Below are positions 1 through 6,835 of a DNA stretch of 6,835 nt, piece by piece (the first letter of the stretch is position 1; every line of letters starts with the position of its first letter). The translations under genes and the position numbers were made by a program. This DNA is from a virus: IMG/VR virus record IMGVR_UViG_3300011894_000040, positions 1 through 6,835 of that record; one strand, written 5' to 3'. A model generated the notes under the pieces. The model made no database searches, was not told the DNA's origin, and was given only the letters and a program-made list of their open reading frames with translations.

Positions 1-77
1 AGATCAATTGTCTACTTCTAAAAAAACTGATACTGCACAGCCTCAGAATGCTAATCTTGATAACAAAGTTAAATTAG
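1..77. repeat. Terminal overlap, left copy (identical to 6759-6835); signature of a circular assembly
   Basis: Base-by-base reading shows agatcaattgtctacttctaaaaaaactgatactgcacagcctcagaatgctaatcttgataacaaagttaaattag at both ends. The reading frame of gI is continuous across the junction. Confidence 0.95.
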
Positions 78-547
78 ATGTTATACCGAAGGTATCCGAA
101 GAGGATTGCAGAAAAGGTGTAAATGTTCAAAAACCTGAATGTGTTGAATACTTTAACCGTCTAACTAAAAATGGTGAGTCTGTTGGTGTTGCTGTACAAC
201 AAGTAAGCTATGATCCGTCTAAGCCTTTTGAATCAGCCGAAAAGATACAAGAAACGGTTTCATATCAGGTTACTGCAAAGCCTGTATTGTCTGGTTGTAT
301 GACCGATCGTCACGGTAAGTTAGTTGGATATACTCAACAAGGTACAATTATTCATGGCCTCAATCAGTCCGATTGCAAACGTATAATTAAAGGAGATCGT
401 CCGTTTAATTACTTTGCTCAGCAGTCTGTACAACAACCTGTACAGCAAGCAGTTCAACAAGTTGCCACTAATCAGTCCTATCAGGCTAATAACTATGTTC
501 AGGAAGGCCTAGAACGTAATCCAGTGAATGGCGCGAACCAATTATGA
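1..547 (+). CDS. gI: Gene I (Zot/pI-like assembly protein), C-terminal part: continuation of the CDS that starts at 6091 (unique part 78-547, stop TGA 545-547)
   Basis: The frame of track ORF 8-547 equals the frame of 6091 after adding 6758. The TTG at 8 is internal, not a start. This part lies after the TM segment (6673-6738), so it is predicted periplasmic. It has 4 Cys and a [S/P/A]VQQ x3 repeat (12-nt units at 428-463). Confidence 0.85.
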   Translation, partial: DQLSTSKKTDTAQPQNANLDNKVKLDVIPKVSEEDCRKGVNVQKPECVEYFNRLTKNGESVGVAVQQVSYDPSKPFESAEKIQETVSYQVTAKPVLSGCMTDRHGKLVGYTQQGTIIHGLNQSDCKRIIKGDRPFNYFAQQSVQQPVQQAVQQVATNQSYQANNYVQEGLERNPVNGANQL

Positions 548-571
548 ATTTCTTCCCTCTGATCACAAAAT

Positions 572-692
572 CCGTCTCTTCGATGTGACGTTGCGTCTTA
601 AAGAAGTGTCTTCAGGGGAATTGAGACACATCGAGACAGTCTATTGATTTACCGTATAATATGAGTGTCTCAAGGCGTAGTCTAGACACTTC
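572..692. promoter_or_regulatory. Array of GTCT/AGAC-based motifs (candidate operator or iteron cluster)
   Basis: GTCTC 574, GTCTT 595, GTGTCTT 605, GAGACAC 623, GAGACAG 633, GTCTA 639, GTGTCTC 665, GTCTAGAC 680-687 (perfect palindrome), AGACAGTCT 634-642 (palindrome). The longer form TTGAGACAC / GTGTCTCAA recurs at 621-629, 665-673 and 883-891. About 10 copies in 120 bp, against roughly 1 expected by chance. Confidence 0.5.
633..660 (+). promoter_or_regulatory. Candidate sigma70 promoter: -35 GAGACA (633-638), 16-nt spacer, -10 TATAAT (655-660)
   Basis: Perfect -10 hexamer, 4/6 -35 at correct spacing. The -35 is embedded in the GAGACA motif array. It would transcribe the 664-892 element and the ORF at 912. 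Confidence 0.45.
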
Positions 693-892
693 GACATGAT
701 GATATGTGAACGTTCAGAATGTTTACTGGAGTTTGGAAGGAAAACGTGATTGCAGCGGTGCCGTAAGCGAGCACGACGCACATGCATAGTGTCGTAGGCA
801 CCGCAAAAGGTAAGTGGCTGTAAAATGGATAGGAAATTTCTGAAGGTAGAGAGCTTATCACTTAAGATGTGTTTATCTCGCCTTGAGACACT
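664..892 (+). other. About 230-nt structured element closed by a perfect 14-bp inverted repeat (ssDNA structure or RNA leader)
   Basis: AGTGTCTCAAGGCG (664-677) is the exact reverse complement of CGCCTTGAGACACT (879-892). An internal hairpin pairs GCGGTGCC (755-762) with GGCACCGC (797-804), with an inner stem ACGAC/GTCGT and an ATGCAT loop. No convincing ORF inside (only 12- and 17-codon fragments). Confidence 0.55.
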
Positions 893-911
893 TAAAAATA
901 AGGGGTATTTG

Positions 912-1052
912 ATGGCTGTTTGGCAATTTGTTAAAGATAACTTTGGGACTTTTTGGTTTCTTTTTATGGGCATCTTCTTTTTAGTAAGAACGTTTTTTTG
1001 GCTTATTCGTCAGCTTCGATACCAAAAACATGATGATCAATATATCCCTTGA
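912..1052 (+). CDS. Small hydrophobic membrane protein, 46 aa (MAVWQFVKDNFGTFWFLFMGIFFLVRTFFWLIRQLRYQKHDDQYIP)
   Basis: In frame with track ORF 825-1052. I prefer the ATG at 912 because of the SD AGGGG (901-905) 6 nt upstream. It has one Phe/Trp-rich TM segment followed by basic residues. The ATG at 825 is an alternative start with no visible SD. Confidence 0.5.
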   Translation: MAVWQFVKDNFGTFWFLFMGIFFLVRTFFWLIRQLRYQKHDDQYIP

Positions 1053-1159
1053 TTGGCATTTTATTACATCTCGAGTCAAGCCGGTGAGCTCGCCCTGGAA
1101 TCAAAAAAATGAATAAAATCAACACTTATGATTTTTTATAGATTGGCAAAATATTACAT
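1051..1159 (+). repeat. Pair of 19-bp direct repeats GATTGGCA-nnnT-ATTACAT (1051-1069 and 1141-1159), 90 bp apart
   Basis: gattggcattttattacat versus gattggcaaaatattacat, 16/19 identical, differing only in a central ttt/aaa. Confidence 0.6.
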
Positions 1160-1176
1160 TTAATTACCCTTTTGAA

Positions 1177-1233
1177 GCTGAAATGATTTTATGAAAAACT
1201 GAAATTTTTCATAAAATTTTCAGCACATTTTTT
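1177..1233 (+). other. AT-rich imperfect hairpin followed by a T-run (terminator, packaging signal or minus-strand origin candidate)
   Basis: GCTGAAA (1177-1183) pairs with TTTCAGC (1218-1224). TTTTATGAAAAA (1187-1198) pairs with TTTTTCATAAAA (1205-1216). Loop is ctgaaa and the T6 run is at 1228-1233. Confidence 0.45.
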
Positions 1234-1242
1234 AGCGTCTGA

Positions 1243-1344
1243 AAGTTCGCATAATGTGATGCACAGATTATGTTACTAAGCCCCAGTGAGAAAATTACGA
1301 AGTCTCACGGGGCTTTTTAACATCAATCTGCATTATGCGAATTT
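1243..1344 (+). other. About 100-nt forked hairpin with dif-like arms: candidate ssDNA attP for XerCD (CTXphi-type)
   Basis: Paired blocks are 1246-1256/1331-1341 (TTCGCATAATG, 11 bp), 1264-1269/1325-1330, 1270-1275/1318-1323, 1278-1284/1309-1315 and 1286-1291/1303-1308. There is a 7-nt bulge TGATGCA (1257-1263). The top strand reads TTCGCATAA-n13-TTATGTTAC. The complement of the bottom strand reads TTCGCATAA-TGCAGA-TTGATGTTAAA. Confidence 0.6.
1278..1318 (+). terminator. Rho-independent terminator candidate (apical part of the forked hairpin)
   Basis: AAGCCCC-A-GTGAGA / TCTCAC-GGGGCTT stem, 11-nt loop, then TTTTT (1314-1318). Lies downstream of the ORF at 912-1052. Confidence 0.45.
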
Positions 1345-1350
1345 GAAAGG

Positions 1351-1400
1351 TTGGGGGAGTCCACGTCTTCTAATGGTGGACTCTAGTCCGAAATTTCGGA
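1351..1400 (+). other. Plus-strand (rolling-circle) origin core with predicted gpII nick site between T1371 and A1372
   Basis: TTGGGGGAGTCCACGTCTTCTAATGGTGGACTCTAGTCCGAAATTTCGGA aligns almost base for base with the f1/M13 origin TTGGAGTCCACGTTCTTTAATAGTGGACTCTTGTTCCAAACTGGAACA (recalled from memory). The hairpin pairs GAGTCCAC (1357-1364) with GTGGACTC (1376-1383). It is followed by the perfect 14-bp palindrome TCCGAAATTTCGGA (1387-1400), in the position of the f1 TGTTCCA/TGGAACA repeat. Confidence 0.85.
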
Positions 1401-1404
1401 ATTT

Positions 1405-1617
1405 TTATAGATCTTTTGCGTTTCTTACAACTACTTTTCCATGTGCTGATATCTCAACATTTTCTATAGCTTGATCAAGGATGATGTGTACAAGCTCACT
1501 ATCCTTGATCGGCTGTAGATTTTTATTGATCAGAATTTTATTGAGCTCTACACACTTCTTTCGTAGAGATTCTTGCTCTTTGTCATTTAAACGAACTGTT
1601 ACTGCCATTTTCGTCAC
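1405..1617 (-). CDS. Ribbon-helix-helix (CopG/Arc-like) transcriptional regulator candidate, 67-70 aa
   Basis: This is the only convincing minus-strand ORF. AVTVRLNDKEQESLRKKCVEL fits beta-strand plus helix A, and DSELVHIILDQAIEN fits helix B of RHH proteins. The track start at 1617 is GTG; the ATG at 1608 (MAVTVRL...) is equally plausible. It is divergent from gII, as repressors of temperate inoviruses are. Confidence 0.5.
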   Translation of the reverse strand: MTKMAVTVRLNDKEQESLRKKCVELNKILINKNLQPIKDSELVHIILDQAIENVEISAHGKVVVRNAKDL

Positions 1618-1737
1618 ATTTTCGGGTTATTAACTTGCATACAATATTACTTGTATATCTGTTATATGTGCTTGCTATTCATGTGTAATTGTATTAAATT
1701 CCGCTTAATGTTATTTGTATACATGCGTAATTAGCCC
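1618..1737. promoter_or_regulatory. Divergent control region between the RHH gene and gII
   Basis: AT-rich. It contains the inverted repeat ATACAA-n6-TTGTAT (1639-1656) and the TGTATACA palindrome (1716-1723). A minus-strand promoter candidate has -35 TTACAC (complement of 1683-1688) and -10 TATAAC (complement of 1661-1666) with a 16-nt spacer. A plus-strand candidate has TTGCTA (1672-1677) and TTAAAT (1694-1699). All are weak calls. Confidence 0.3.
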
Positions 1738-2961
1738 ATGCTAGATCATATTTGCATAAATGCGCCTTTTGAATCCAGCTTCTACTCAGTAGATGCGGAA
1801 GGGCGTTATTTTTTTGTAGATATCGATCTTCACAGTATAGAAATACCGCTTGCTTCTCGTTCTGTTCATAAGAATGACGATGGTTCAATTTCTGCTGCTG
1901 CGTTATTCCATCCGTTTGAGTCGGTTCCGACTCATTACACTGGTATGGCAATGAAAGTTTTTTTTGATTCTTCGTATGAACCTTTTGTACAGATCAAGGC
2001 TTCTCCTGCGAAATTGCTGCAAGGGCATAATGTCTTTGGCAGCGACAACATAGAGCAGGGTGCTATGGAAATGATCGGCTTCTTACATGAAGCTTATCCG
2101 CTTCTTGCAAGGATGCTAGATTGGCCTCGTGCATGGGTTTCACATATTGATGTGACTTACTCAGTACGATTGAAAGACCAGAACACAGCTAAAAAAGTTT
2201 TGGATTTCTTGAGCAATGTCAGCAATGGCCAGACTCGTTTAAGTAACAAGCGTTTCGACAGTTCAGTATATTGGGGAGGTCAGACTTCAAGACTTGTGAA
2301 TCACAAGTGTTATATGAAGCATGACGAATTTATCGCTCAATTTGAGGAGTATAAGCAACTTGCAAAGAAGAACGATAAAGCAGCTCAACGAGTTGTTGAT
2401 GTCATGTCCAATTCGGATCTGATTAACTGGACTGTCGGTCTTTTACGTTTTGAATCACGTTTAAAAAAACGTTGGCTTGAACGTAATGGAATTCCTACCA
2501 ATCTCTTTGATTTAATTAAGTTTCAACGTTCCAATCCAAATTTACTTCAAACACTCTGGACTAAAGCTACTCATAGCATTTTTGATGCCTTACGAGGTCA
2601 AACTATGAAATTAACAGACGATACTAGTGTTCTTGAAGCTATCCAACGATCTGATGTTGTTTTAACCAAATCTGGTAAAGCTTCCCCAACTAAAGTACGT
2701 AATTTATTTGCCATGTATTGTCTTATCCGCGAAAAGGGATTTGATGAAGTTAAAACGACTTATGGCAAGTCTCAATTTCACAATCTAATAGCCCAGTTAT
2801 GTGCTGTACAAGGTCTTAATAAAGGTATCTTGCAGAACTTACATACAGGCAATGCCAACAATATTATTCCGTTTATTAAGTTCGTAGACATAGATTTCAA
2901 TCAACAATTGCCAGATTGGTACGAAGAGCCAGTTTCGCAGTTCAACTACAAAATTGCATAG
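1738..2961 (+). CDS. gII: Replication initiation endonuclease gpII (Ff-type rolling-circle initiator), 407 aa
   Basis: Collinear blocks match M13 gpII as recalled. HPFESVPTHYTGMAMKVF / VQIKASPAKLLQGHNVFG matches HPFESLPTHYSGIAFKIY / VEIKASPAKVLQGHNVFG. LSNVSNGQT matches LRNVSNGQT, and GLLRFESRLKKRWL matches GLVRFEARIKTRYL. NIIPFIKFVDIDFNQQLPDWYEEPV matches NVVPLVRFINVDFSSQRPDWYNEPV, and both proteins end in KIA. Tyr192 (tat 2311-2313, in CYMKH) aligns with M13 Tyr197 (AYLKH). Confidence 0.95.
   Translation: MLDHICINAPFESSFYSVDAEGRYFFVDIDLHSIEIPLASRSVHKNDDGSISAAALFHPFESVPTHYTGMAMKVFFDSSYEPFVQIKASPAKLLQGHNVFGSDNIEQGAMEMIGFLHEAYPLLARMLDWPRAWVSHIDVTYSVRLKDQNTAKKVLDFLSNVSNGQTRLSNKRFDSSVYWGGQTSRLVNHKCYMKHDEFIAQFEEYKQLAKKNDKAAQRVVDVMSNSDLINWTVGLLRFESRLKKRWLERNGIPTNLFDLIKFQRSNPNLLQTLWTKATHSIFDALRGQTMKLTDDTSVLEAIQRSDVVLTKSGKASPTKVRNLFAMYCLIREKGFDEVKTTYGKSQFHNLIAQLCAVQGLNKGILQNLHTGNANNIIPFIKFVDIDFNQQLPDWYEEPVSQFNYKIA
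2605..2961 (+). CDS. gX: gpX equivalent: in-frame internal translation product of gII, 118 aa
   Basis: The ATG at 2605 (Met290 of gpII) sits at the position homologous to the M13 gX start (MKLTDDTSVLEAIQ versus MNIYDDSAVLDAIQ). It is preceded by GAGG (2594-2597) with 7-nt spacing. Confidence 0.7.
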   Translation: MKLTDDTSVLEAIQRSDVVLTKSGKASPTKVRNLFAMYCLIREKGFDEVKTTYGKSQFHNLIAQLCAVQGLNKGILQNLHTGNANNIIPFIKFVDIDFNQQLPDWYEEPVSQFNYKIA

Positions 2962-2969
2962 GTGAGCAA

Positions 2970-3305
2970 ATGAACAATTCACAACATCCGATTATGACAG
3001 TTACAGGCATCCGTAAAGCTGCTGGCGACTTTCAGGACGATAAAGGCAAAACAATCGAGTTCTCAAACACGGTTGTAACTGTATTACAGAATTACTCTGA
3101 GCGTGAGCTTGAACAAGGTGCAATCGGATTCAAATCTACCGATTACAAAATCAAAGGCGCTCAGTTCTTTAATGATTACATGCATCAGAAGCTACCAGCC
3201 GAGGCTGCAATGATCTTTGATTGGGATTTCACGGGCAAACAGCCAAAGGCTGTGTTGGTTGCGCTAGATTTCAATGCGAAGAAACAGGAAGTTAAACCTC
3301 TATGA
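2970..3305 (+). CDS. ssDNA-binding protein candidate (gV position), 111 aa
   Basis: SD AGGTGA (2960-2965) precedes the ATG at 2970; the upstream part of track ORF 2916 overlaps the gII end and is discounted. It lies immediately after gII/gX as in Ff. The motif DKGKTIEFSNT resembles the QGKPYSLNE (M13 gpV) and KGNPYTFQE (Pf3 SSB) DNA-binding wing as recalled. Similarity is weak, so the call is mainly positional. Confidence 0.55.
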   Translation: MNNSQHPIMTVTGIRKAAGDFQDDKGKTIEFSNTVVTVLQNYSERELEQGAIGFKSTDYKIKGAQFFNDYMHQKLPAEAAMIFDWDFTGKQPKAVLVALDFNAKKQEVKPL

Positions 3306-3457
3306 TCAACATAAATCATTTTCAATCAGTTGTTTGCGCGGATTGTGGCGTTAAGTTTAAACCAGCATCACGATATTTAGAGTTGGGTGCTCACAAACCA
3401 CATTGCACACAAATAAGAGAAGAAACGGAAGAAAAACCTGTACAAACAAAGGCATAA
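3302..3457 (+). CDS. Small CxxC...HxxxC zinc-finger-like protein A, 51 aa (MININHFQSVVCADCGVKFKPASRYLELGAHKPHCTQIREETEEKPVQTKA)
   Basis: Not in the ORF track (too short). The ATG at 3302 overlaps the gV-like stop (ATGA coupling), and AGGAAG lies at 3286-3291. It has a CxxC-x15-HxxxC motif and an acidic/basic tail. It is paralogous in pattern to the ORF at 3514. Confidence 0.5.
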   Translation: MININHFQSVVCADCGVKFKPASRYLELGAHKPHCTQIREETEEKPVQTKA

Positions 3458-3464
3458 ATATACC

Positions 3465-3492
3465 GTTTCGCATAATGTATAATATGTTAAAA
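3465..3492 (+). other. Near-canonical 28-bp dif-like XerC/XerD site (GTTTCGCATAA-TGTATA-ATATGTTAAAA)
   Basis: 24/28 identical to E. coli dif GGTGCGCATAA-TGTATA-TTATGTTAAAT (9/11 XerC arm, 6/6 central, 9/11 XerD arm). The XerC arm plus first central bases (TTCGCATAATGT) are identical to 1246-1257. The same bases also contain TGTATAAT (3476-3483), an extended -10. Confidence 0.75.
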
Positions 3493-3513
3493 ATCAACAA
3501 CTTAGGTGATTTT

Positions 3514-3627
3514 ATGATTAAAAAGATAACACCAATGATGGGGGATAATCAAGTGGAATGTCCTAAATGTTATTCGTATTTTCACCGCAAATATTTGGCT
3601 TTTCACATGTCTAAGTGTGAAGGCTAA
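3514..3627 (+). CDS. Small CxxC...HxxxC zinc-finger-like protein B, 37 aa (MIKKITPMMGDNQVECPKCYSYFHRKYLAFHMSKCEG)
   Basis: SD AGGTGA (3504-3509) precedes the ATG at 3514. The upstream part of track ORF 3403 starts at TTG and reads through the dif-like site, so it is discounted. It has a CxxC-x11-HxxxC motif and shares V.C..C...F...(R/K)YL...H...C with protein A. Confidence 0.5.
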   Translation: MIKKITPMMGDNQVECPKCYSYFHRKYLAFHMSKCEG

Positions 3628-3636
3628 CTGGGGATT

Positions 3637-3852
3637 ATGAGTATGCAGATTGATGATTGCACAGCAACAACGGTAATCAATGGGGTCAATTACTGCGTAC
3701 TCGTCATACATCAACAAAGCTGGCTAGACGAACTCAACAATTTAACAGTTGTCCAAGTTGGTCTATTACTGTCTAGCACAGCGTTGATTTGGTACGTTGC
3801 TTGGGGCATACGTGCTGCTTTAGACCTACTTGGACATGATCATGAGGATTAA
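3637..3852 (+). CDS. Membrane protein sharing the major coat protein's C-terminal motif, 69-71 aa; candidate minor or cap coat protein
   Basis: It has a C-terminal TM (VVQVGLLLSSTALIWYVAWGI). YVAWGIRAALDLL (3793-3831) matches YVGWGIRRALSLL of gVIII (4075-4113) at 10/13 residues. There is no signal peptide and the tail is acidic (GHDHED). The ATG at 3643 has better spacing to GGGGA (3630-3634) than the ATG at 3637. Confidence 0.6.
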   Translation: MSMQIDDCTATTVINGVNYCVLVIHQQSWLDELNNLTVVQVGLLLSSTALIWYVAWGIRAALDLLGHDHED

Positions 3853-3855
3853 CAC

Positions 3856-4119
3856 ATGGAAAATAATCAACAACCTCTACAAGCTACTGATAACACCAAA
3901 AAGGCTGTTACTGCCGTAAAACGCGCAGCTATGACTGCTGGTGTTGTAATGGCAACTACTGCTGCGGCATTTGCTGAAGATGGGGGCACTTCGATTGATT
4001 TAACCACTGGCTTGGCTGGTGTTGCGATTATTGCGGGTCTTCTTTCTGTAGGTAGCCTCAAGGCTGTACCAACATATGTTGGTTGGGGTATTCGTCGAGC
4101 GTTATCACTTCTTCGCTAA
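3856..4119 (+). CDS. gVIII: Major coat protein precursor (gVIII type), 87 aa, predicted mature 47 aa
   Basis: SD GAGGA (3844-3848) lies 7 nt upstream. The leader ends in AFA with cleavage predicted before EDGG. The mature protein has an acidic N-terminus (E, D, D), a hydrophobic core (GLAGVAIIAGLLSVG) and a basic C-terminus (K, R, R, R). It is followed directly by a strong terminator, as in Ff. Confidence 0.85.
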   Translation: MENNQQPLQATDNTKKAVTAVKRAAMTAGVVMATTAAAFAEDGGTSIDLTTGLAGVAIIAGLLSVGSLKAVPTYVGWGIRRALSLLR

Positions 4120-4136
4120 TTGATAAAACAAAAAAA

Positions 4137-4182
4137 AGCTGGGAGGAGCGCACAGCTGTACGCACCTCACCCAGCTTTTTTT
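4137..4182 (+). terminator. Rho-independent terminator after the coat gene
   Basis: AGCTGGG (4137-4143) pairs with CCCAGCT (4170-4176), with further AGG/CCT and GCG/CGC pairs. It is followed by T7 (4176-4182) and preceded by an A-run, so it may work in both directions. Confidence 0.85.
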
Positions 4183-4201
4183 ATAACTGGAGTAAAGCGA
4201 A

Positions 4202-4264
4202 ATGACCGTCTATTACATCATTGTGGTGGCTCTTGCGTTGTGGATCGTCTTGTCGGGGAAATAG
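4202..4264 (+). CDS. 20-aa hydrophobic mini-ORF (MTVYYIIVVALALWIVLSGK), candidate gVII/gIX-like minor coat or membrane peptide
   Basis: Not in the ORF track. GGAG (4189-4192) lies upstream. The stop TAG (4262-4264) is 1 nt before the gIII ATG at 4266, which suggests translational coupling. It is a single TM-length hydrophobic stretch. Confidence 0.4.
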   Translation: MTVYYIIVVALALWIVLSGK

Positions 4265-4265
4265 T

Positions 4266-5812
<1,547 letters not shown>

Positions 5813-5813
<1 letters not shown>

Positions 5814-6091
5814 TGCTTAAGTTTCTCGCAAAGTTAACAGAATGGTTATTAAAAAACTCGGTTCAAAAGGTGCTTACTGGGGCGGGTTTATCGGTGGTTT
5901 CTTACCTGTCTGTAGTAGCTGTAATAAGGGTCGCTTTTAACAGTTTAATTAATTCAATTTATAGCGTTTCTGCTGATCTTCTTAATTTTATGGGTATTTG
6001 TGGGATCGATTACGCTTTAAGTGGTTTCGTTTCTGTAGCTGTTTTCTTGATGAGTATTAAACAAGGCAGCTTATCTTTGAGGAAAAAATAA
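5813..6091 (+). CDS. Small multi-TM membrane protein at the gVI position, immediately upstream of the Zot-like gene (as Ace is upstream of Zot in CTXphi), 92 aa
   Basis: The ATG at 5813 overlaps the gIII stop (TAATG), with GGAG at 5802-5805. Its own stop overlaps the gI start (TAATG at 6089-6093). It has two to three hydrophobic segments. The call is positional. Confidence 0.6.
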
Positions 6092-6835
6092 TGAGTCAAT
6101 CTGCTGGCGGTACGTTTCGACTTGTTTGCGGTCAAATTGGCGCGGGTAAATCATATCTGTATGTTAAACAAGTAGAAGAAGAAATTAAAAAAAGTGGCAA
6201 ATATAAAAAGATTTATTCAAACATTCGTGCACATGCTGAATTAGCTGAAGGTATTACACCACTTCCAGACGATTGGCGAGAATGTGAACCTGATAGCCTT
6301 GTAATTATTGACGAGGTACAGAAACATGAGAAGTTTAGTAAACACTTCTCCAGTCGTCGTGATAGCGAGATTGTAGACCTTACAATGATTCGACATCAGC
6401 GTTTAGATTTATGGCTTATCAGCCCCAATCCAGCGCTAGTAAACAGTGATGTGCGGAACCTTGTGACACAGTATTTCTGGCTTGAAGTTGTAGGTGCTAA
6501 AACAACGAAATGCTATTGTTTTACGAAGGTTTATAACAGTATTACCAAATCAATTAAATTACAGGCTTATGATGAGTTTGTTTATACAATCGAAGAGAAG
6601 TATCACAAACTTTATAAATCTACTGAAGACGGTATAGCATCAGGTCGTAACTATAATTTTAATGTTAAGTTATGGGGCTTTGTAGGTGGTTTGGTTGTTG
6701 TAGTTATTGTGGCTTGTTTTCTTGTAGGTTTTTTTGCAAAGGGGACAAAAACAAAAAAAGATCAATTGTCTACTTCTAAAAAAACTGATACTGCACAGCC
6801 TCAGAATGCTAATCTTGATAACAAAGTTAAATTAG
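6091..6835 (+). CDS. gI: Gene I (Zot/pI-like assembly ATPase), N-terminal part; the CDS continues across the circular junction to 547 (404 aa in total)
   Basis: Absent from the ORF track because it has no stop inside the window. SD GAGGA (6079-6083) is present. Walker A is GQIGAGKS (6130-6153; M13 pI has GKLGAGKT). Walker B-like is LVIIDEVQ (M13 has LLVLDECG). The TM segment is LWGFVGGLVVVVIVACFLVGFF. Confidence 0.9.
   Translation, partial: MSQSAGGTFRLVCGQIGAGKSYLYVKQVEEEIKKSGKYKKIYSNIRAHAELAEGITPLPDDWRECEPDSLVIIDEVQKHEKFSKHFSSRRDSEIVDLTMIRHQRLDLWLISPNPALVNSDVRNLVTQYFWLEVVGAKTTKCYCFTKVYNSITKSIKLQAYDEFVYTIEEKYHKLYKSTEDGIASGRNYNFNVKLWGFVGGLVVVVIVACFLVGFFAKGTKTKKDQLSTSKKTDTAQPQNANLDNKVKL
6759..6835. 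repeat. Terminal overlap, right copy (identical to 1-77)
   Basis: Same 77-nt string as 1-77. Position p at the left end corresponds to p+6758. Confidence 0.95.

Follow-up and report, generated by a model that had tools for sequence, protein, structure and literature searches.

A forked hairpin in the + strand of an inovirus genome is, with a probability that we put at about 0.8, a CTX-type attP(+), the site where host XerC and XerD insert phage single-stranded DNA (ssDNA) in the chromosome. The element occupies positions 1244–1343 of the window, by which we mean the whole stretch of 6,835 nt that was analysed (IMG/VR record IMGVR_UViG_3300011894_000040); it is a circular 6758-bp genome whose bases 1–77 recur at 6759–6835. 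An initial annotation, made from the letters alone, had proposed such a site. Three kinds of observation carry this reading: the structure of the hairpin, its conservation and covariation among related phages, and the positions of prophage junctions in these relatives. A Xer-type exchange at 1254/1255 is nearly certain, and the folded ssDNA is, by analogy with CTXphi, the probable substrate of this exchange.

Structure and conservation of the forked hairpin

Two inverted dif-like sites, at 1244–1278 on the + strand and 1315–1343 on the − strand, lie in the intergenic region upstream of the replication module, which is the arrangement that characterizes CTX-type elements. When 1230–1355 was folded as DNA, the forked hairpin proposed in the initial annotation was returned with an energy of −29.5 kcal/mol, compared with −10.9 ± 2.7 kcal/mol for shuffled sequences (z −6.9; 0 of 200 shuffles as good); the minus strand folds with a z of −7.9. 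The hairpin spans 1246–1341 (96 bases), 14 nt upstream of the core of an M13-type plus-strand origin, and contains 36 pairs (11+12+13) distributed over a basal XerC-arm duplex, a XerD-arm duplex and a GC-rich apex (Table 1). Three A-T pairs (1243–1245 with 1342–1344) lengthen the basal duplex. The central regions of the two strands differ in length, with 13 nt (TGTGATGCACAGA) on the + strand and 6 nt (TGCAGA, read on the − strand). The 36 bp, the 11-bp base, the 7-nt one-sided bulge, the XerD-like duplex and the unequal centres were all found where the initial annotation had placed them.

As duplex sites, the arms have the sequences AGTTCGCATAA-13 nt-TTATGTTACTA (5´ arm) and AATTCGCATAA-TGCAGA-TTGATGTTAAAA (3´ arm, on the minus strand); in the folded + strand, the 3´ site gives the bottom strand of both the XerC and the XerD duplexes. 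The first three nucleotides of the 5´ central region, TGT (1255–1257), are the start of the host dif central region TGTATA, and the XerC cleavage and exchange point is predicted between A1254 and T1255. The sequence TTCGCATAATG occurs three times in the window, compared with 0.2 copies expected (0 of 200 shuffles reach three), and the third of these copies, at 3467, lies within a canonical duplex dif-like site of 28 bp (3465–3492).

A megablast search returned Acinetobacter phage M02 as the only phage match, together with three Acinetobacter 'plasmids', in one of which (pANC7912.4) the hairpin alone matches. When genomes were scanned with five aligned Rep proteins, 73 loci were obtained. Inverted XerC arms 80–160 nt apart are present just upstream of rep in the window and in 22 of these loci, the hosts being Acinetobacter, Moraxella and Psychrobacter, Pseudomonas, Glaesserella and Haemophilus parainfluenzae, with some metagenome-assembled genomes (MAGs). 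Scanning viral contigs (IMG/VR) for the window-type arm gave 45 further contigs. The window and the 22 loci yield 27 distinct hairpins, which all fold to one design with a variable apex and a total length of 89–159 nt; within this set, no homologue has the hairpin without the dif-like arms. The 5´ spacer is 7–13 nt long and starts with TGT in 14 of the 27, some sharing only 1–2 nt with dif, and the 3´ spacer has 6 nt in 19/27 and 7 nt in 8/27.

Relatives retain the paired parts, and their bulges differ in sequence (GCA, GTC, GTT, GCT). The four pairs that precede the XerD arm, made of spacer bases that Xer proteins do not read, occur as several pair types that change together (CAGA, AAGA, GCAAG, ACAGG, CGGA and others). 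Over the last four spacer nucleotides, the two arms of one phage agree at 53 of 72 positions, compared with 28.9 ± 3.9 when the arms are permuted among phages (0 of 20,000 permutations). The compensatory changes in homologues that the initial annotation had named as a check are therefore present as spacer bases next to the XerD arm that co-vary between the arms, which points to selection for intrastrand pairing.

Prophage junctions and the substrate of the exchange

The initial annotation had also pointed to prophage junctions, and those of integrated relatives fit strand exchange in the structure, at the border between the XerC arm and the spacer of the long-spacer 5´ arm. The A. baumannii plasmid pC9_1 carries two tandem copies of a relative, with an intact hairpin and origin between the copies. 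At the left end, attL reads plasmid-ATTTCGTATAA joined to TTTGACCAAGCGTTATGTTA, followed by the apex, the 3´ arm and the origin (the phage side begins TTTGACC), and at the right end, attR reads ctgaaagTTCGCATAA joined to TAGAGATTATGTTAAAT and plasmid (arm side GTTCGCATAA). A C/T difference in the XerC arm, together with divergence after the first spacer base, maps the exchange to the point of the long-spacer arm where XerC arm and spacer meet. This tandem prophage (L004 5842–6000 and 12303–12330; L005 minus strand ~2447–2276; NZ_CP113443.1) lies inside a 115-kb mobilizable plasmid. Its target was a pdif-like site, reconstructed as ATTTCGTATAA-TAGAGA-TTATGTTAAAT, beside an apparent disrupted transposase.

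In A. geminorum J00019 (L009), window positions 1245–2505 are matched at 98.9%, starting exactly at the 5´ arm, and the left flank is a chromosomal chaperone-usher pilus operon. Its attL has the chromosomal-type arm TTCGTATAA in place of TTCGCATAA, followed by the phage spacer TGTGATGCACAGA, and this marker maps the crossover between 1250 and 1257. The array ends in a canonical dif, TTCGTATAA-TGTATA-TTATGTTAAAT. Complete prophages with the hairpin at the left, a canonical dif (TGTATA-TTATGTTAAAT) at the right, Zot just inside and host genes outside were found in a Moraxellaceae MAG (L007), in Pseudomonas (L024) and in H. parainfluenzae (L055); the last is a tandem, and the left flank of its attR is identical to the inter-copy flank. 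Further junctions of a chromosomal flank with the hairpin are present in L103, L106 and L115. All of these junctions lie on the 5´ (long-spacer) arm of the + strand, with both arms kept at attL and dif regenerated at attR. Every visible left end of an array is of the hairpin type and never a chromosome joined to the XerD half of the duplex site. Hairpin-proximal parts persist in arrays and distal parts are lost. Recombination at the 6-nt 3´ site as a duplex was considered and rejected: it would invert the prophage and bring the origin side next to dif (attR), and no such junction was seen.

Two other arrangements were observed among the loci. The M02 record (L001, OQ693633.1; 6243 bp, labelled circular and complete) has ~130 bp duplicated at its ends (1–130; 5816–6243) and finishes with a canonical dif, after which ~290 bp are unrelated; the record seems to represent part of a prophage with adjoining host DNA, not a phage circle, and gives no attL. 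A 290-nt block shared by L086 (reverse complement 3968–4253) and L103 (reverse complement 112–399) lies between a phage intergenic region that ends in ctgaaag, without the XerC arm, and the next hairpin, and may be host DNA from the left side of dif or belong to another element.

We propose the following scheme. The inverted dif-like sites would pair in circular + ssDNA, either on entry or when it is produced by pII rolling-circle replication at the origin 14 nt downstream, to give duplex XerC and XerD sites 6 nt apart on the bottom strand, with the seven extra top-strand nucleotides looped out. Host XerC and XerD would bind this dif mimic and synapse it with a chromosomal dif or a plasmid pdif. 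XerC would cut the top strand after TTCGCATAA (1254/1255) and exchange one strand pair, stabilised by the TGT common with dif TGTATA, and replication would turn the intermediate into a prophage. The left end of this prophage would consist of the dif XerC arm, the whole hairpin region, the origin, the repressor-like gene and rep, and the right end of zot, the intergenic region, the phage XerC arm and the regenerated dif. In duplex form, the left site would have a 13-nt spacer, so that XerCD should not reverse the reaction, and phage would be produced in tandem arrays, where pII replication would run between successive origins. That XerC alone catalyses the exchange, that replication resolves it and that it cannot be undone is suggested here by analogy and by the 13-nt spacer.

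The attP(+) of CTXphi from Vibrio cholerae was reportedly described by Val et al. in 2005. In NC_015209, the CTXphi attP reads AGTGCGTATTA-TGTGGCGCGGCA-TTATGTTGAGG and, further on, an inverted XerC arm-TACGCCA-TTATGTTACGG. Folded with the same tool, CTXphi attP(+) (NC_015209, 3171–3335) shows a XerC-arm duplex, a 5´-side bulge, a XerD-arm duplex and an apex (z −7.1). The geometry that the initial annotation had likened to CTXphi thus has the same fold architecture, with spacers of 12 and 7 nt in CTXphi compared with 13 and 6 nt here. Published work gives CTXphi spacers of 12 bp and 5–7 bp with ~90 nt between, and an irreversible exchange by XerC only (PMC4246890). In both systems, a divergent gene at the repressor position and rep follow directly after the inverted dif-like sites, one spacer is long and the other short, and the TGT by the XerC cleavage site matches dif. 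In both, the two arms persist at attL and dif is restored at attR, the phages form tandem arrays and have satellites with rep only, and a XerC-arm polymorphism marks the crossover; in NC_015209, attL has the chromosomal XerC-arm variant and attR the phage variant. The differences are also clear. No sequence similarity extends outside the dif-like arms, and the XerD arms are ~40 nt apart here (the 39-nt hairpin) compared with 90 nt in CTXphi. The present site has a terminator-like apex, an Acinetobacter host and an extra duplex dif-like site in the genome, and it accompanies an Ff-type pII (PF05144) and an M13-like origin, in contrast to the RstA (PF02486) of CTXphi. The mechanism is proven experimentally for CTXphi and is proposed here from sequence analysis.

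The alternative that survives best, which we nevertheless consider improbable, is that the substrate is the double-stranded replicative form (RF), recombined at the 5´ site alone despite its 13-nt spacer or as a cruciform of supercoiled RF, with the packaged ssDNA not used. Both strands fold equally well. However, XerCD sites work with 6–8 bp spacers, and neither CTXphi duplex site is a substrate (PMC4246890). The arm covariation shows selection for intrastrand pairing, and a cruciform would offer the minus-strand hairpin too and produce inverted prophages, none of which was seen among junctions that all lie on the + strand 5´ arm. The folded + strand is the most economical substrate, because a 13-nt spacer is unworkable as a duplex Xer site and the arms are selected to pair.

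Several points weigh against the reading of the hairpin as attP(+). Junction sequences alone cannot tell ssDNA from a cruciform that shows the same hairpin, and the preference for ssDNA over RF DNA draws on the 13-nt spacer and on the likeness to CTXphi. The junctions come from relatives with 98.9% (L009) and 99.97% (L117) identity and from more distant ones, and the complete window genome was not seen with an attL. The L009 scaffold has N gaps that make its internal order uncertain, although attL and attR read clean. Homology to the target beside the cleavage site is just 1 nt in pC9_1, L007 and L022, and the permutation control for covariation does not fully remove relatedness among the phages. 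In addition, the second Xer site at 3465–3492 has also recombined with dif, and the hairpin may not be the sole route.

Table 1. Features of the hairpin, the second Xer site and the genome (window coordinates).
Feature	Position	Strand	Description
Basal XerC-arm duplex, 11 bp	1246–1256 with 1331–1341		TTCGCATAATG pairs with CATTATGCGAA
One-sided bulge, 7 nt	1257–1263		TGATGCA, 5´ side only
XerD-arm duplex, 12 bp	1264–1275 with 1318–1330		CAGATTATGTTA with TAACAT-C-AATCTG; contains TTATGTTA; C1324 bulged
Apex, 13 bp, GC-rich (7+6)	1278–1315		AAGCCCC-A-GTGAGA / TCTCAC-GGGGCTT; 11-nt loop, then T run
XerC-binding arm of 5´ long-spacer site	1244–1254	+	AGTTCGCATAA; matches XerC half of Acinetobacter dif/pdif seen at prophage attR sites
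Central region of 5´ site, 13 nt	1255–1267	+	TG paired, TGATGCA bulge, CAGA paired
XerD-arm-like sequence of 5´ site	1268–1278	+	TTATGTTACTA; consensus dif XerD arm is TTATGTTAAAT
3´ short-spacer dif-like site	1315–1343	−	AATTCGCATAA-TGCAGA-TTGATGTTAAAA read on − strand
Plus-strand origin core, Ff type	1356–1392	+	nick-site hairpin GGAGTCCACGTCTTCTAATGGTGGACTCTAGTCCGAA; aligns with M13 origin core 5´ GGAGTCCACGTTCTTTAATAGTGGACTCTTGTTCCAA
Duplex dif-like site, 28 bp	3465–3492	+	GTTTCGCATAA-TGTATA-ATATGTTAAAA
Long intergenic region	548–1737		contains the hairpin
Divergent ORF at rstR position, 70 aa	1405–1617	−	phrog_5642 (unknown function); position only
Replication initiator Rep, pII type	1738–2961	+	PF05144 (2e-49) and PF05155; 37% identity to IKe/f1 pII
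ssb-position ORF	2970–3305	+	assigned by position
Small ORFs		+	
Coat-like ORF	3856–4119	+	
pIII-like ORF	4266–5813	+	
DUF2523 ORF, pVI position	5813–6091	+	
Zot/pI	6091 through circle junction to 547	+	PF05707

The duplex dif-like site and mini-elements

The second Xer site, which is absent from the initial annotation, has a XerC arm and a central region identical to host dif and a XerD arm that begins ATAT, not TTAT. It is kept at the same place in many relatives, after the ssb-position gene and upstream of a small open reading frame (ORF) with a CxxC motif. In the window, two small ORFs with CxxC...HxxxC motifs and no family match flank the site (3302–3457, 51 aa; 3514–3627, 37 aa), and the second is kept directly downstream of it in M02 and others. 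The left flank of the site is fused to the XerD half of dif in at least 14 loci (L001/M02, L023, L030, L031, L033, L037, L081, L082, L086, L088, L111 and L113–L115) and to the hairpin of a following element in L009 (at 12425), L082, L087, L095, L096, L103, L110, L117 and L124. In L117 (IMGVR_UViG_2565956981_000001), the phage of the window itself (99.7–99.97%) is present as a prophage array with an intact hairpin between copies. The upstream copy lacks window 2568–5692, and the second copy stops at the duplex site, where it is fused to a different phage; the 99.97% match to window 1–3478 ends at 3478, inside the site.

The site resembles the single 28–29-bp duplex attP of VGJphi-type phages. 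It could therefore be the real attP, used for VGJ-type integration of double-stranded DNA, with the hairpin not used for integration. We regard this as even less probable than the use of RF at the hairpin. The near-perfect dif with an identical central region, the many hybrids of its left flank with the dif XerD half and the end of the L117 match within the site speak for it. A VGJ-type test of 3465–3492 found attR-type hybrids frequently and the expected attL-type junction never: no host flank joined to XerC arm, TGTATA and ATATGT was present in the loci examined, where intact copies all have the phage-type left flank, and the integrative use of the site is thus unproven. The visible left ends of arrays are always hairpins, and the XerD arm of the site is without the conserved TTAT. 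XerCD deletion between the duplex site and the dif of attR, or later events, would account for the hybrids equally well; we read them as such deletions followed by further hairpin integrations. Integration of the hairpin into the duplex site itself (intergenic flank joined to TGTATA and ATATGT) was not found either, with one ambiguous junction at a contig end (L101 13388). Integration through the duplex site, or a role of the site in RF dimer resolution, is possible.

A unit of 2.0–2.8 kb with the order hairpin-origin-(repressor)-rep-ssb recurs singly or in tandem, and its right border is the XerC half of the duplex site. It is found in L023, L030 and L033 (single or tandem), in an array with a 2040-bp period in L103 (396, 2436, 4476) and in the short contigs L087 (2214 bp) and L095 (2202 bp); the ends of L087 are repeated, as in a circular molecule or a collapsed tandem array. 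These units resemble RS1-like satellites or deletion remnants. Like RS1, the ~2.1-kb hairpin-origin-rep-ssb units (L087, L095, L103, L023, L030 and L033) are rep-only and share the attP of the phage; unlike RS1, they look like products of deletion between the duplex site and dif, not like a separate lineage with a gene of its own such as rstC. In L031, and probably in M02, a unit precedes a full copy, so placed that rolling-circle replication from one origin to the other would release a whole genome.

These observations allow a tentative scenario of a two-site Xer system, which we consider possible but doubtful. The hairpin would serve one-way ssDNA integration at chromosomal dif or plasmid pdif, and the duplex site would then recombine with the regenerated dif and remove the morphogenesis half. 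The leftover 2.1-kb hairpin-origin-rep-ssb unit would give an upstream origin for phage production by the next copy, as RS1 does for CTXphi, and may propagate itself as a satellite. If this scenario were true, the pdif recombination network, by which resistance genes travel between plasmids of Acinetobacter, would come to include phages and satellites.

Other roles of the hairpin, the replicon and implications

The apex had initially been noted for its resemblance to a rho-independent terminator, which is plausible: 1278–1318 folds as RNA with −24.2 kcal/mol (z −6.8) and is followed by UUUUU, and a comparable GC stem with a T run is present in many relatives. The apex probably acts as a + strand transcription terminator in addition to closing the hairpin. 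A terminator pattern scan of 500–1800 did not report it, the loop limit of the scan being 8 nt and the apex loop 11 nt. A pattern scan of the same region revealed no sigma-70 promoter mimic inside 1243–1344, and an Rfam scan of the window at E ≤ 1 gave only a chance miRNA match at 1177–1228. This interval, which lies shortly before the attP hairpin, forms an AT-rich and nearly perfect hairpin of its own (GCTGAAATGATTTTATGAAAAACTGAAATTTTTCATAAAATTTTCAGC) that is kept in pC9_1. Window 558–900 is also strongly structured, with perfect 14-nt inverted repeats (664–677 and 879–892) around ~200 nt, recurrent GTGTCT/AGACAC motifs and a promoter-like site at 631–660. Bases 557–696 are kept at 78–85% in otherwise divergent phages (L003, L009), and the 558–900 block is a candidate packaging signal, minus-strand origin or regulatory region.

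In Ff phages, the minus-strand origin consists of hairpins located 5´ of the plus origin, which imitate a sigma-70 promoter so that the primer can be made. The present hairpin occupies this position and has a terminator-like apex, yet it is very unlikely to be mainly a signal for replication (as a minus-strand origin), for packaging or for transcription (as a terminator) with incidental dif-like arms, since the arms stay XerC/XerD consensus across several host families while the apex sequence and overall length (89–159 nt) vary freely, the crossovers map to the arm, the promoter mimic was not found in 1243–1344, and other strong hairpins of the intergenic region (664–892, 1177–1228) are available for such roles. 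A minus-strand-origin or packaging role may be additional and is not needed to explain the conservation.

The + strand of the genome holds all genes except one, the 70-aa minus-strand ORF, which has no Pfam match and is a putative repressor on the basis of its position. No recombinase or integrase match was obtained with Pfam among the scanned ORFs (ten and Zot, which takes in every ORF >130 aa), and a PHROGs scan of eight of those ORFs gave no recombinase match. The Ff-type replicon named in the initial annotation is borne out by the two Pfam domains of Rep, its identity to IKe/f1 pII and the M13-aligned origin (Table 1); the RstA family (PF02486) is unrelated. Rep shows no similarity to RstA-type initiators (Rep_trans, PF02486), which places the phage outside the CTXphi lineage (RstA/RstB/RstR replicon, Affertcholeramvirus). 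The phage and CTXphi have the class of mechanism in common, not the lineage. Two further features are ordinary for inoviruses: a Gly/Thr/Ser repeat linker with a 12-nt period in the pIII-like gene (5246–5437) and a strong terminator-like palindrome directly after the coat gene (4130–4181).

CTXphi has an established CTX-type attP(+), and sequence analysis has predicted one for YpfPhi and CUS-1Phi (PMC4246890, PMC4266046, PMC3442271). YpfPhi of Yersinia pestis and CUS-1Phi of E. coli K1 are listed as CTX-type relatives because their encapsidated genomes carry two XerC/XerD sites in inverted orientation; they integrate at dif, form tandem repeats and restore dif at the 3´ end (PMC4266046, PMC4246890). 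They differ from the present phage in hosts and genomes, and the likeness, drawn from their published description, is to systems also supported mainly by sequence analysis. The UPPhi phages of Enterobacterales, relatives of IKe and I2-2 with an Ff-type gene II, form tandem repeats at dif in which only the first ~15 dif bases are repeated between copies, and the paper describes no attP hairpin (PMC7307601); the combination of an Ff-type replicon with dif integration is thus not unprecedented. Acinetobacter pdif modules also have inverted XerC/D and D/C sites with the Acinetobacter arm consensus, and the pC9_1 relative lies in a plasmid pdif, but the same hairpin design is present in phages of Pseudomonas and Pasteurellaceae. 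A pdif module proper, with cargo between inverted pdif sites with 6-nt spacers, was rejected as a description of the element, which has a 13-nt spacer and no cargo, only a 39-nt hairpin between the XerD arms. In the first paper on filamentous phages of A. baumannii, the use of XerCD was only suggested, and no attP or hairpin was mentioned (PMC11209303). Full-text literature on Acinetobacter and integrative mobile elements exploiting Xer (IMEX) gave only work on plasmid pdif, in a collection that is not exhaustive.

A CTX-type IMEX on an Ff-type pII replicon is a known mechanism hitherto undescribed for this phage group. The finding would extend the ssDNA integration of CTXphi, proven only in Vibrio and predicted for YpfPhi and CUS-1, to a large set of Ff-type (pII) phages that spans Acinetobacter, other Moraxellaceae, Pseudomonas and Pasteurellaceae, with an attP design that is modular and independent of the replication module. 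It would also supply the attachment site of A. baumannii filamentous phages, which was left open in their first description (PMC11209303). These prophages are badly cut by automatic tools, and the junctions give a rule to delimit them, with the hairpin as the left end and the phage XerC arm and dif as the right end. Finally, the integration in the plasmid pdif of pC9_1 ties filamentous phages to the network that Xer sites form in resistance plasmids of Acinetobacter.

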